Positions 34,968-38,633 of a stretch of DNA of 64,000 nt are shown piece after piece. Each line of letters opens with the position of its first letter. Position 1 is the first letter of the stretch. Under the pieces are notes generated by a model that saw only the letters and a program-made list of their open reading frames with translations, was not told the origin of the DNA and ran no database searches. Position numbers and translations under genes: made by a program. The DNA is from an uncultured Acidobacteriota bacterium (GTDB taxonomy: Bacteria; Acidobacteriota; Thermoanaerobaculia; Multivoradales; JAHEKO01): the NCBI GenBank assembly GCA_963713825.1, contig CAVQNG010000025.1, positions 864,001-928,000 of the forward strand, given 5' to 3'.

Positions 34968-35690
34968 CTAAGGGTCCGTCTTGTAGGCGGACCAATCGCC
35001 TGAAGCAGGCCGTCCTGCCGACAGGTCGAAGGCGAACCACCTGCCTCGGATCTCGCCCTTGACGGTGTCGAGCACGCCTTTCACTGTCGCCACCGCGCCC
35101 TTGCTCGTGTCGATCATCTCGAGTTGTAGCTTGTCGCCTACCAGGGTGCCCCGCATGGCACCCTGGTTGCCATTGCTCATTCGGTAGGTGCCGGTTACCA
35201 GGAGGTTTTCGGCTTCCAGCTCGAAGACCCCATACAGATCGATTGGCTGCGCCTCGACCCGCCAAACTCCGGCGATGCCACCGCTGCGTTCTTGTCGGCG
35301 TTCTGCCGTCACCTCGTACTCCTGGACGATGCTGGAGAGTCGGCGCATGCGCTCGTACATTCGCTGACGGGCTGCAGCGCTTTCTTTGGCGCGAGCACAG
35401 GCCGCCTCGATTGCCACTCCCACTTCTTCCTCCAAGAGCCCGAAGTTCGACAGCGAGGCGTTGGGGTCCTCGATCAGCTCGTCGAGCTCGGCATTGAGCC
35501 GCTGCAGATCGGCTACCGCTCGATTCTCGCGGGCTCGAGCACGACCATACGCCGCGACCTCCTCGTCGAGCAGGCCGGCCTCGACGGAGAAGGCACTTTG
35601 GAGGCTGGCCGCGGTCTCAGCCGGTGCAGCAAGAGTCGGAAATACAACCAAGAGAACGGAACACAAAAGCAGCATCTTGAAGCTTCGCAT
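34968..35690 (-). CDS. Secreted hypothetical protein (coiled coil plus small beta domain)
   Basis: Signal peptide, helical N-half, IAGVW-initiated beta-rich C-half. Confidence 0.72.
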   Translation of the reverse strand: MRSFKMLLLCSVLLVVFPTLAAPAETAASLQSAFSVEAGLLDEEVAAYGRARARENRAVADLQRLNAELDELIEDPNASLSNFGLLEEEVGVAIEAACARAKESAAARQRMYERMRRLSSIVQEYEVTAERRQERSGGIAGVWRVEAQPIDLYGVFELEAENLLVTGTYRMSNGNQGAMRGTLVGDKLQLEMIDTSKGAVATVKGVLDTVKGEIRGRWFAFDLSAGRPASGDWSAYKTDP

Positions 35691-35868: not shown

Positions 35869-36678
35869 ATGAAGCGAAAGAAGTGCTTCCTCGGAGGCAC
35901 CCTACTCCTGTTCGTAGCAGCTCTGCCTACGGTCGCGGCAGCCGGCACGGAGACCTTGACAATCTTGAACAAAGCGATCAGTCCCGAGAATCGGACCCTC
36001 TCCTTCGATCTCTGGAACACCACTGACCATGTGATCACAGCCTGGCGCCTCAGCTTGGCCCACGACGATGGCTTCGGAAAGAGCCGGCGCTCGATCCTGG
36101 ATCAGGACTTTGCCCTGAGTGCATCGAGGGCAGGAAACGTGGAGCCAGCCATTCGGGGCGCCAGGATCGAGGGACCGATCCAGCCCGGCGAGGTGGTTGC
36201 CTCGGAATGGGGCATCGAGCTGCCTACAGGAGGACACGAAGCTGCGGCCCTTGGTCTGCGAGTGGCGGCAGTGGTGTTCGAAGATGGGAGCTTCGCTGGT
36301 GATCCAGACGGTTCGAGGGCGATTCTCGCGGCACGATCGGCGCGTCTCGAGGAGATGCGGCAGGCCCTCGACTTCCTGCGGGAGACAGGTGCGGCAGGCT
36401 TGCGAGGCGGCCTGGCCAAGCGGAGATTTGCGGCCAAGGCCCAGGAGCTCCGAGAGGAGAGCAGGGGTTCCGAGATGGCAGATGGACTTCGCAGGGAGGT
36501 CGCTGCTCAGATGTCGGCTGCCAAGTTGGAGGTGGCCGAGCTCCTCGAATCTCTCCAGGATTCGATCGGGGTCGAGGTCTGGACAGGAGACGATGGGCCT
36601 GTCGATACTGCTATTCGGGACCTGCAGGCACAAATCGACGCTGGTGAGAGCCGTGAGGCTCGAAAGGAGGCGCAATGA
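35869..36678 (+). CDS. Secreted hypothetical protein, translationally coupled to the downstream Cys-rich SPM protein
   Basis: GAGGAG RBS, signal peptide MKRKKCFLGGTLLLFVAALPTVAA, AVVFEDGSFAGD motif, ATGA overlap with the next gene. Confidence 0.75.
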   Translation: MKRKKCFLGGTLLLFVAALPTVAAAGTETLTILNKAISPENRTLSFDLWNTTDHVITAWRLSLAHDDGFGKSRRSILDQDFALSASRAGNVEPAIRGARIEGPIQPGEVVASEWGIELPTGGHEAAALGLRVAAVVFEDGSFAGDPDGSRAILAARSARLEEMRQALDFLRETGAAGLRGGLAKRRFAAKAQELREESRGSEMADGLRREVAAQMSAAKLEVAELLESLQDSIGVEVWTGDDGPVDTAIRDLQAQIDAGESREARKEAQ

Positions 36679-37673
36679 TGAGGCGTTCGCGAACTGGGCT
36701 GTTGTCGAGCCTTGCCGTTGGCTTCCTGTTGCTCGGCTCCATCGATGCTTCGCAGGCTCTCTGTAAGGGCTCCCTGAATGTGGTCGGTGGTGGCTCGGAA
36801 ATGTCTCGTCGGTGCCCTTCACCGAATCTGAGGAAGACGTGGCGCATCGAATGTCAGGACGCCTGTGACTATGTGACGTCATCGTTTCAGCAAACGCTGA
36901 CGGGCTTCGGTGATTGTATGAAGGATCCGAAGTGCACCACCGGCATCAAATGCCTGCCGCTCGCGGGCAGCGACATTCGAGCTTACAATCCGCCCTCACT
37001 ATCCAGCAGTATCTTGAATCGTGCCGGTCGGTACACCCTACCGCCGTGCGTCTCTCCGGCCTGTTTCACCAGTAGCGTCAATACGATGACGGTCTACTGT
37101 GACTGTGATGGCGACCACCCAGGTTGGTGGTGTGCGGAGAACGATCCCCTGATCCTCAGTCTCGACGACTCCATCTACCGACTGACGGATCGCGATGGTG
37201 GTGTCGAGTTCGATTTGGGTGCCAAGGGTGTCGCCCATCAGGTTCCCTGGACCGCCAGGCTCTCGAACGAGGCGTTCTTGGTGCTGGATCGTGATGGCAA
37301 TGGCACGATCGATGATGGAACCGAGTTGTTCGGCGATGTGACTCCTCAGCACCAGACAGCCAACCCCAATGGATTCGAGGCTCTGGCCTTGTACGATGAC
37401 TCCTTGAGCGGTGGCAATGAGGATGGTCGGATCGATGCAGCGGATGAGATCTTCATCAGGCTCCAGCTTTGGATCGATCGGAATCACAACGGTCGATCCG
37501 AGTCGGCAGAACTGAGCTATCTCTCGGACTCGGAGGTCGTGTGGATCGGCCTCTCTTACAGGCAGAGTGATCGGGTGGATCGTTTTGGCAACGAGTTTCG
37601 CTATCGTGGTCGAGTAGGCCTGGCCAGCGGCCAAAAGCGGGCGATCTGGAACGTGTTCTTGAACGCCGAGTGA
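36675..37673 (+). CDS. Secreted Cys-rich protein fused to a FrpC-type Ca-dependent self-processing module (SPM)
   Basis: Signal peptide and a 12-Cys domain, then DPLILSLD...FD...W...FLVLDRDGNGTIDDGTELFGD...NGFEAL...DGRIDAAD...LQLWIDRNHNGRS...EL, which is the SPM pattern. Confidence 0.8.
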   Translation: MMRRSRTGLLSSLAVGFLLLGSIDASQALCKGSLNVVGGGSEMSRRCPSPNLRKTWRIECQDACDYVTSSFQQTLTGFGDCMKDPKCTTGIKCLPLAGSDIRAYNPPSLSSSILNRAGRYTLPPCVSPACFTSSVNTMTVYCDCDGDHPGWWCAENDPLILSLDDSIYRLTDRDGGVEFDLGAKGVAHQVPWTARLSNEAFLVLDRDGNGTIDDGTELFGDVTPQHQTANPNGFEALALYDDSLSGGNEDGRIDAADEIFIRLQLWIDRNHNGRSESAELSYLSDSEVVWIGLSYRQSDRVDRFGNEFRYRGRVGLASGQKRAIWNVFLNAE

Positions 37674-37767: not shown

Positions 37768-38013
37768 ATGCTGGGGTTTTCCCTGACGAAGGTTGTGGAG
37801 GTTCTGGTCGTTGTGCTGGTGCCGATGGCGATGGTTTTTCTCGGGGATCGCAATACATCGCTGCCCAGTCGGCTGGCATTGGGCCTGGGCCTGGTGGGCG
37901 GGTTGCTTTTCTTGGTGTCCGTCCTCTCCAGTTCGGGTGTTGCAGAGGAGTACTTGGTGGCGGCGACGGTCGGTCTGGGCCTTGGCGGCTGGTCGCGGTC
38001 TACTTCACCCTGA
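37768..38013 (+). CDS. Small hydrophobic membrane protein (about 3 TM)
   Basis: AGGAGG upstream of the ATG; 81 aa, almost entirely hydrophobic; short convergent overlap with the next gene. Confidence 0.55.
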   Translation: MLGFSLTKVVEVLVVVLVPMAMVFLGDRNTSLPSRLALGLGLVGGLLFLVSVLSSSGVAEEYLVAATVGLGLGGWSRSTSP

Positions 38014-38563
38014 TGATGAAGTAGGTGCCGTGGTACTGCGGACGGCCGTCCCCTCCATGGTTGTGGTTGCCGTTGACGTTGATCTGCAGATCGTGCGTAT
38101 GCCGGAAGCCACGGTTGCCCGACGAGTCGAGATAGCGGGGTGAGCCTGACACCTGATTCACTCGATTGGTCGCGTTGCCGCGGTGATTGTGCTGGCCGCC
38201 CATGGTGATCTCGTTGGATCCACCCGTGCTGTTCAGCTCATCCGCGGAGGCCACGCCCATGACAAATCGGTTGTCCATGAGGTTGGGTAGCGCTTTGCCA
38301 TGAAACGGCGAATTGGCATCGCTGACGGTTCGACCGTCGCAGGGGAGCCACCCCTGAGGTAGCGAGTCGAGGCTGCCAACGTAGGGCAGAATGGCACCGA
38401 CCGGGACACCGATGAGGTTCGAGCCTCCGCCGCTGGAAGCCGGATCGGCAGGGGCCATGTCCCCACGGTCGGGCTGTGCAAGGAGTCCGAAAGCGCCAAG
38501 GGCGGATACTCCTGCAACAACCAAGATGAGCCAGAGCCGGTGCTGTCGGGATGAGGGTCTCAT
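38000..38563 (-). CDS. Phage tail collar domain protein with N-terminal signal/TM
   Basis: VPVGAILPYVG...PQGWLPCDG...LPNL..RFVMG, three HxH motifs, C-terminal FIIRVK; AAGGAG RBS before ATG 38563. Confidence 0.8.
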   Translation of the reverse strand: MRPSSRQHRLWLILVVAGVSALGAFGLLAQPDRGDMAPADPASSGGGSNLIGVPVGAILPYVGSLDSLPQGWLPCDGRTVSDANSPFHGKALPNLMDNRFVMGVASADELNSTGGSNEITMGGQHNHRGNATNRVNQVSGSPRYLDSSGNRGFRHTHDLQINVNGNHNHGGDGRPQYHGTYFIIRVK

Positions 38564-38633
38564 GCTGATCTCCTTGCCGCCGTTTGGCAAGCGGTCCGTT
38601 CAATCGTTCGGTTACTACCCGAGCCTAGCAGTT

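Follow-up and report, generated by a model that had tools for sequence, protein, structure and literature searches.

A FrpC-type self-processing module at the end of a small, Sec-type acidobacterial protein and its candidate upstream partner

What does FrpC's self-processing module (SPM) do at the end of a small protein that lacks RTX repeats? The question is raised by one gene in a stretch of 64,000 nucleotides (nt), which we analysed as a whole and here call the window (contig CAVQNG010000025.1, positions 864,001 to 928,000, of assembly GCA_963713825.1, from an uncultured sediment bacterium of the Acidobacteriota). The literature, as far as its accessible text goes, describes the SPM as exclusive to RTX proteins. 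An initial annotation, made from the letters of the window alone, had read the gene product as a secreted, disulfide-rich mini-protein that carries a stand-alone FrpC-like module and clips itself at an Asp-Pro bond. The short answer is that the module is of the FrpC type by sequence and predicted fold, that it probably cleaves itself upon calcium binding, and that it hardly stands alone: a putatively secreted partner is encoded directly upstream.

Judged by its sequence and by its predicted model, the C-terminal domain is a true FrpC-type SPM, as had been supposed. When the protein was compared with all PDB chains by phmmer, FrpC was the only convincing match. Residues 158-324 align with 6sjw_A at an expectation value (E) of 5.3e-13, Pro158 falling on residue 1 of that chain; 6sjx_A, the uncleaved precursor mutant, matches with E 8.9e-13, and its Asp is aligned with Asp157. 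The module opens exactly at the Asp-Pro bond, where the initial annotation had placed its start. A profile built from 38 relatives finds the FrpC SPM with E 1.1e-31, and this alignment reaches the last strand at position 329. The AlphaFold2 model, computed on the alignment of the relatives, has a mean predicted local distance difference test score (pLDDT) of 87.4. Being a predicted model and not a solved structure, it matches 6sjw with a Foldseek E of 9.6e-13 and a template modelling (TM) score of 0.77. VIA-align superimposes residues 158-332 on residues 1-171 of the 6sjw chain with Z 19.4 and a root-mean-square deviation of 2.7 Å over 157 residues, and the runner-up in its structural search of representatives has Z 3.6. 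The fold of the FrpC module was reported as novel when it was solved, according to the accessible part of its description. Precomputed annotation agrees: PF26745.1 lies on all 120 relatives listed, the Atlas label is "SPM" (Pfam 38.1) and the cluster name "SPM domain-containing protein". Also, every SPM-like motif that the initial annotation had quoted is found in the translation. Of course, acidic calcium-loop motifs could create similarity by chance, or the open reading frame (ORF) might not be a real gene, and the local Pfam indeed gives sub-threshold EF-hand matches only. We consider this practically negligible in view of 473 homologues, full-length relatives of 45-95% identity, the whole-domain alignment with FrpC (E 1e-31) and its fold (Z 19.4), a strong ribosome-binding site and conserved synteny.

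The protein that carries this module is built as had been described: the ORF encodes 332 amino acids (aa), and the signal, the domain of 129 aa with its 12 Cys, the Asp157-Pro158 bond and the C-terminal domain of 175 aa are all present. The signal peptide would be cleaved after Ala27. Residues 6-25 form a helix in the AlphaFold model, and a simple heuristic sees a signal-like pattern also in 36 of the 38 relatives. Two other routes of export were considered by eye and rejected: the sequence ahead of Cys30 does not fit a lipobox, and the basic N-terminal end is not kept as a twin-arginine (Tat) motif. The absence of RTX repeats and of anything behind the module, which the initial annotation had pointed out, is equally clear. 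No RTX-repeat family matches the protein in the local Pfam up to E 10, the only matches being the sub-threshold EF-hands, and there is no match to the nonapeptide GG.G.D. The SPM match extends to residue 332, the stop codon follows directly, and a C-terminal extension is missing. Among the eight neighbours scanned, there is no type I secretion gene.

For the functional residues we relied on the roles described for FrpC in the accessible part of Kuban et al. 2020 (PMC7078468) and mapped them by the phmmer and profile alignments (Table 1). Their conservation was counted over 260 family members, comprising the listed relatives, the best 150 of the full HMMER scan and the query. The acidic residues of the three EF-hand-like loops are practically constant: D205 is kept in 258/260 and E217 in 260/260, D241, D257, D268 and E279 in 260/260 each. 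G220 occurs in 255/260, and the Trp pair is equally stable (W192 in 260/260, W266 in 259/260). In FrpC, again by the accessible text of PMC7078468, the module binds calcium with an affinity of ~150 uM, and D579, L580 and L582 line the cleavage site; D579A abolished cleavage, and D579N had no significant effect. Since FrpC D579N cleaves normally, the Asn326 of our protein is compatible with activity.

Table 1. Positions in the window of the SPM gene, its upstream neighbour and the mapped parts of the protein
Feature	Position	Strand	Remarks
Partner gene "up"	35869-36678	+	269 aa from ATG 35869; open frame from GTG 35740; signal-like N-terminal end
AGGAGG, Shine-Dalgarno-like	36665-36670	+	4 nt 5' of ATG 36675, 7 nt 5' of ATG 36678
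SPM-protein ORF	36675-37673	+	332 aa; stop codon 37671-37673
Sec signal peptide (predicted), residues 1-27	36675-36755	+	Basic N-terminal end, then hydrophobic stretch
Cys-rich N-domain, residues 28-156	36756-37142	+	129 aa, 12 Cys, beta-rich; presumed cargo
Asp157-Pro158 (GAT CCC), predicted scissile bond	37143-37148	+	FrpC D414-P415, alignment to 6sjx/6sjw
SPM (Pfam 38.1 PF26745), residues 158-332	37146-37670	+	19.5 kDa, pI 4.55; sequence and model match to FrpC SPM
Trp pair W192 and W266			FrpC W451 and W519, alignment; W266 precedes third loop
EF-hand-like calcium loop Asp205-Glu217	37287-37325	+	FrpC D462-E474
Leu218, Gly220, Asp221 after first EF-hand-like loop		+	FrpC L475, G477, D478, alignment
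G233			FrpC G491, alignment
Second calcium loop Asp241-Asp257	37395-37445	+	FrpC loop beginning D499
Third calcium loop Asp268-Glu279	37476-37511	+	FrpC D521-E532
C-terminal strand Trp325-Leu329	37647-37661	+	N326, V327, L329 = FrpC D579, L580, L582, profile alignment

How, then, might the protein work? Calcium-triggered self-cleavage at Asp157-Pro158 into fragments of ~14 and 19.5 kDa appears likely, and we put its probability at roughly 0.6, because Asp-Pro is kept within the subclade of the protein and the residues that block cleavage of FrpC are almost absent ahead of it (see below). The Sec system would export the protein unfolded, and the signal peptide would be removed. Disulfides would form after export; outside the cytoplasm the N-domain would be expected to fold and its 12 Cys to pair. 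Calcium, if bound as in FrpC, would next occupy the EF-hand-like loops and make the SPM fold. By the same analogy, folding would strain the Asp157-Pro158 bond, the Asp side chain would attack its own carbonyl, and the chain would break. That would leave an N-domain of 14.1 kDa with a reactive Asp anhydride at its end, and the SPM (19.5 kDa) on its own. For the former (residues 28-157) we compute 14,058 Da, a pI of 6.7 and 5 Lys, for the latter (residues 158-332) 19,521 Da, a pI of 4.55, 2 Lys and no Cys. The anhydride would then either link to a nearby amine or hydrolyse; to see the cargo linked to the up protein or to an envelope component is speculative. The calcium-poor cytoplasm and the unfolded transit through Sec would prevent premature cleavage.

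The critical residue is the one ahead of Pro. Among the 38 full-length relatives, Pro158 is kept in 38 and Asp157 in 32. Over the 260 family members, Pro is kept in 258, and the residue ahead of it is Ser in 154, Asp in 64, Thr in 35, Cys in 5 and Ile in 1, with one gap. A similar picture emerges from 80 loci (79 distinct), kept out of 603 candidate stretches in one-genome-per-species contigs, of which 456 were seen to encode a relative; several genomes contribute many times to these loci, and a few Candidatus genera are of unchecked lineage. Here, 82 ORF rows show Ser 59 times, Thr 11 times, Asp 10 times, and Cys and Glu once each, two rows without start codon being excluded. The expectation that the Asp is conserved among homologues is thus borne out in the protein's own subclade and fails in the wider family, which mostly has Ser, Thr or Cys ahead of the invariant Pro.

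The distribution of Asp is not haphazard. We built a FastTree tree from the SPM columns 159-332, i.e., with the cleavage site excluded; neither this tree nor the following one is reliably rooted. It unites all Asp-Pro proteins but one (63 of 64) in a single clade that has 67 tips and a support of 93, and four changes between Asp and non-Asp suffice to explain the pattern. Of the tips scored in this acidobacterial subclade, 63 of 66 retain Asp. A "quick" IQ-TREE run covered a subsample of 30/64 Asp rows, 45/194 Ser/Thr/Cys rows and 7/8 plasmid rows (one was too gappy). In the resulting tree, a branch with a Shimodaira-Hasegawa-like approximate likelihood ratio test (SH-aLRT) value of 84 has the acidobacterial Asp group to one side, within a starred set of 30 Asp rows and 2 others. 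The preceding position is also telling. In FrpC fusions, D, G or P directly ahead of Asp-Pro reduces cleavage to a minimum, as the accessible part of PMC7846742 reports. The 64 Asp-Pro proteins have Asn (47), Glu (9), Gln (6) or Asp (2) there, whereas Gly (34) and Pro (30) are found, among many others, ahead of the 194 Ser/Thr/Cys-Pro sites; cleavage-blocking residues thus amount to 2/64 versus 64/194. That the Asp-Pro clade avoids them fits selection for a working site. Moreover, where Asp is absent, its place is taken almost exclusively by Ser, Thr or Cys, all of them nucleophiles, which suggests that the position ahead of Pro has a nucleophilic role in these sequences and is not a relaxed one.

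Five further SPM positions, 162, 165, 199, 221 and 326 (window 37158-37652), are coupled to the site class. Asp-Pro proteins mostly have S, D, E, D and N there, Ser/Thr-Pro proteins mostly D, G, D, N and D. According to the alignments, FrpC has D, G, D, D and D and is nearer to the Ser/Thr class despite its Asp-Pro.

The presumed cargo has its Cys residues at positions 30, 47, 60, 64, 81, 87, 93, 125, 130, 142, 144 and 153. Six of the 12 are invariant in the 38 relatives and four more are kept in at least 35 of them, which agrees with the disulfide-rich domain that the initial annotation had proposed. In 58 of the 64 Asp-Pro proteins a Cys lies no more than six residues ahead of the site. The model of the domain is beta-rich, its blocks having mostly pLDDT values of 88-98. 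No solved fold stands out in comparisons made with the whole-protein model, in which the domain was not modelled alone (best Z 3.6). A profile of the N-domain matches SPM-carrying ORFs only, namely in 14 loci and in the window's own locus. N-domain relatives without SPM did not turn up in a word-limited search of a large protein collection, where the 6 matches among 20 candidates were all SPM proteins, and the Atlas yields no usable match to the domain when the PF26745 clusters are excluded. The initial annotation had proposed to test whether the N-domain is hypervariable and the SPM constant. Across the superfamily the N-terminal parts indeed differ widely; hypervariability is not seen in the protein's own clade, where the Cys scaffold is fixed and mean identity to the query is 0.42 for the N-domain as compared with 0.61 for the SPM. 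The N-domain evolves faster, yet it keeps its Cys.

That the module is "stand-alone", as the initial annotation had it, is no longer tenable. The upstream gene, up, is translationally coupled to it, conserved across acidobacterial classes and fused to it in one genome. Read from the sequence, the stop of up and the ATG of the SPM gene share an ATGA overlap. In its model (pLDDT 69.3), the up protein forms a beta-sandwich at about residues 30-144 and, behind it, four long helices (146-268). Matches to known folds are generic; the best is a beta-sandwich of a hypothetical protein (Z 8.6), and helical bundles reach Z <= 8.4. The protein has 18 homologues, none of them with a Pfam family, and it finds itself no family in Pfam, NCBIfam or PADLOC and no sequence match among solved structures, FrpD entries included. 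A lipobox was not seen by eye.

An up profile of 15 members was run on the six-frame ORFs of the 80 loci at E <= 0.01. It matches in 21 of them, always on the strand of the SPM gene and, with the exception of one locus in which both share a frame, 5' of it and often abutting. All 10 Asp-Pro loci are among them, and so are 10 of the 68 loci in which another residue precedes Pro. Limited sensitivity may account for the lower rate in distant loci, because the profile was built from close relatives. Four profile iterations, which did not converge and may have drifted, raise the yield to 40 up ORFs in 32 loci, again all on the same strand. By this unconverged profile only, two Blastocatellia loci (L033:2083-4536 and L057:1437-6690) show three to four up-like ORFs in tandem ahead of their SPM genes. 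One single-contig genome (G186) has three up matches, each lying ~1.26-1.28 kb 5' of an SPM match and on its strand. Up matches are also missing from the genomes of the same genus and family, which have no SPM match (see below). The clearest case is a metagenome-assembled genome of the Thermoanaerobaculia (L062:3822-5849, + strand), where one frame encodes a signal and three domains, namely up (E 2.4e-11), a homologue of the N-domain (E 1e-4) and the SPM (E 2.5e-69); the junction reads Cys-Pro. Since close relatives share the wider synteny as well, it is the distant loci, the repeated pairs and the fusion that carry the argument for a partnership. From these gene arrangements, the secreted up protein would most likely be the binding partner or target of the cargo, which is speculative. 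FrpD, a lipoprotein, offers a precedent: the accessible part of PMC7078468 describes it as encoded upstream of FrpC and as a binder of the clipped FrpC fragment.

Alternatively, the protein might cleave itself and the anhydride might simply be hydrolysed, the SPM being a calcium-triggered, self-removing pro-domain or folding aid for the Cys-rich domain, with no covalent link formed. Engineered fusions of FrpC and FrpA indeed show hydrolysis and intramolecular reaction beside ligation. Of the 262 domain rows in the stored set, 236 have an SPM that stops no more than 10 residues short of the C-terminus, and a last position is what one expects of a removable pro-part. Also, the extended up family offers no conserved Lys as an acceptor; only N50, P106, D139 and G144 reach 80% in it. 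Yet a partner that is conserved and sometimes fused suggests a function of two proteins, a protease site would be a simpler means to remove a pro-domain, and it is the linking step that gives the FrpC module its role, as far as the accessible text of PMC7078468 goes. We therefore regard mere hydrolysis as rather unlikely.

Several observations weigh against self-cleavage followed by linking, the reading that we prefer. The lack of a Lys conserved across the extended up family is one of them. Sec export, in a cell with two membranes, reaches the periplasm only. In our searches we found no published cleavage, calcium-binding or cross-linking experiment on a non-RTX SPM. As compared with FrpC, 5 residues are inserted in the second calcium loop. 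The first, incomplete calcium site of FrpC (D419, D421, D423, G424) is kept in part, as S162, D164 and D165, and the Ser162 in the place of D419 is invariant in the clade. The model loses confidence at the junction, with pLDDT 66 for residues 141-150 and 74 for residues 151-160. Among the 38 relatives with the same N-domain, 6 have Ser or Thr in the place of Asp, and over the 260 family members Ser, Thr and Cys outnumber Asp by 194 to 64, which means that the family can function without an Asp anhydride.

Some of these points would be accounted for if the domain did not cleave at all and served as a calcium-binding C-terminal folding or anchoring domain, with a merely structural Asp-Pro. In FrpC, D414A abolishes cleavage (accessible part of PMC7846742), and most relatives have Ser, Thr or Cys at this position; the first calcium site is altered in the clade, and Ser-Pro members, too, are paired with an up gene. 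A structural Asp-Pro, however, hardly explains why Asp is retained in 63 of the 66 scored tips of the subclade, why inhibiting residues precede 2 of 64 Asp-Pro but 64 of 194 Ser/Thr/Cys-Pro sites, and why Asp gives way almost only to nucleophiles, unlike a relaxed position would. The residues of the FrpC cleavage port are kept as well. A non-cleaving domain thus is unlikely in our view, and calcium-triggered self-cleavage remains the reading that we favour.

How widespread is the arrangement? Scanned in full with HMMER, the SPM part retrieves representatives of 18,049 clusters at E <= 0.001; at <= 1e-10 there are 10,106 and at <= 1e-30 still 2,440. A C-terminal SPM is not a rare architecture: it occurs in thousands of clusters, and the family has its name in Pfam 38.1. 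The titles of the loci records are mostly those of Acidobacteriota, i.e., Blastocatellia, Pyrinomonadaceae, Thermoanaerobaculia, Terriglobia, Vicinamibacteraceae and Bryobacteraceae. When genomes of the window's phylum were sampled evenly, 19 of 201, the window's own among them, gave a match at E <= 1e-10, and a single genome had as many as 13 places. The genome of the window has a single copy, and the genomes of the same genus and family have no SPM match with this query.

On plasmids, tblastn finds the SPM in 60 records, mostly of Pseudomonadota and some of Cyanobacteriota. Eight were inspected. In six, the SPM lies inside a coding sequence annotated as "calcium-binding protein" or "iron-regulated protein frpC"; five of these, whose extent is comparable, measure ~7-9 kb, and one adjoins type I secretion genes. 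The other two encode a Janthinobacterium protein of 386 aa, whose SPM is C-terminal, and a Tistrella protein of 583 aa. The site is Asp-Pro in four of the eight, Ser-Pro in two and Thr-Pro in two, and the plasmid SPMs form a clade of their own in the trees. Ser/Thr-Pro sites occur in the plasmid loci L081, L082, L087 and L088, including RTX-type proteins of Pseudomonas and Roseobacter plasmids. The Janthinobacterium protein, encoded on a J. lividum plasmid (L087:37-1197), is betaproteobacterial and has Thr-Pro; short non-RTX SPM proteins therefore are not confined to Acidobacteriota.

Some neighbours deserve mention. Just 3' of the SPM gene (37768-38013, + strand), an ORF with a strong AGGAGG encodes 81 hydrophobic residues; it is 69% identical in L003 and reaches E 1.9 or worse in the other loci. 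It may encode a small membrane protein and belong to the SPM operon. On the opposite strand, 38000-38590 encodes an exported protein of 196 aa with a sub-threshold match to a phage tail collar (E 1.5e-4) and 79% identity in L003. Divergently, 34968-35690 (- strand) encodes a signal-bearing protein of 240 aa that matches no family and is kept beside the cassette in L002-L005 with 39-84% identity. A scan for promoters and terminators gave no signal over the shuffled expectation, and base composition is even over the region, without a sign of recent transfer.

One metatranscriptome run contains two contigs of 250 nt (depth 2, 95-99% alike) at 36332-36580 and 36603-36852. The one that crosses the junction of up and the SPM gene is a weak hint of co-transcription; it is too thin to show expression, and carry-over of DNA is possible. 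Near-identical DNA occurs in metagenomes of sediment, marine sediment, freshwater sediment and salt marsh, with 13 studies and 20 runs among the matches listed, one run of which may be the window's own source. Calcium is plentiful in sediment and salt-marsh settings.

What does this add to the knowledge of the SPM? The domain family itself is already named in databases (Pfam 38.1 SPM). Full-text literature searches, which do not extend to subscription papers and supplements, yielded no paper on non-RTX SPM proteins by title or abstract. The RTX-free, Sec-type layout with a C-terminal SPM, the cassette with a partner and the majority of Ser/Thr/Cys-Pro sites hence appear to be undescribed in print as far as searched. 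The module is now seen on a small Sec-type protein, and the gene stands for thousands that only databases have named. If the protein cleaves, one has a natural module that is compact (175 aa, no Cys, 2 Lys), together with its native cargo and a candidate native target, and the biological purpose of anhydride-based protein linking becomes testable outside pathogens. The family also offers many new modules for ligation tools based on FrpC, and its Ser/Thr/Cys-Pro majority suggests that the fold either is used without cleavage or supports a new chemistry of self-processing.

One may go further and see the SPM no longer as an accessory of RTX proteins but as the C-terminal engine of a large class of Sec-exported two-gene cassettes that are common in Acidobacteriota, the cargo being clipped and covalently locked onto the partner or the envelope. 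The Asp-Pro members, that of the window included, would then be natural "NeissLock" pairs, and the Ser/Thr/Cys majority would operate by a second chemistry, proposed because hardly any but nucleophilic residues are tolerated ahead of Pro. This might be an acyl shift, N-to-O or N-to-S, by which a reactive ester or thioester is created. Taken as a whole, this extended picture is distinctly doubtful.

Among known systems, the clip-and-link proteins FrpC of Neisseria meningitidis (6SJW, 6SJX) and ApxIVA of Actinobacillus pleuropneumoniae are the closest. The domain is the same by sequence (31-32% identity) and by fold, and it opens at Asp-Pro. EF-hand-like loops, the Trp pair and the cleavage-port residues are kept, and an unfolded state in the calcium-poor cytoplasm would follow the same logic. 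The differences are no less distinct. The window protein has neither RTX repeats nor a C-terminal type I signal and instead bears an N-terminal Sec-type signal; its SPM is last and not internal; it comprises 332 aa as compared with more than 1,000; and its cargo is a small disulfide-rich domain. Unlike in FrpC, the first calcium site is only partly kept and Asn326 takes the place of D579. The hosts of FrpC and ApxIVA are pathogens, whereas that of the window is an environmental bacterium. Because the defining repeats, the secretion signal and the size all fail, the protein is outside the clip-and-link RTX proteins. The gene directly upstream, as a candidate binder, recalls the pair FrpC/FrpD, yet the up protein neither matches the FrpD structures by sequence nor shows a lipobox by eye.

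The window protein instead is a member of the "SPM domain-containing proteins" (PF26745), and like these it consists of a signal peptide, an N-terminal part, which is variable and often Cys-rich, and a C-terminal SPM. There it belongs to the Asp-Pro minority subclade, whereas most members are Ser-Pro or Thr-Pro proteins that differ at positions 162, 165, 221 and 326. The nearest analogue in design is NeissLock, an engineered fusion of a binder with the SPM that locks onto a target. The order binder, Asp-Pro, SPM and the C-terminal place of the module are the same, and the co-encoded up protein would be the target. NeissLock was made by engineers; its putative counterpart here is natural.

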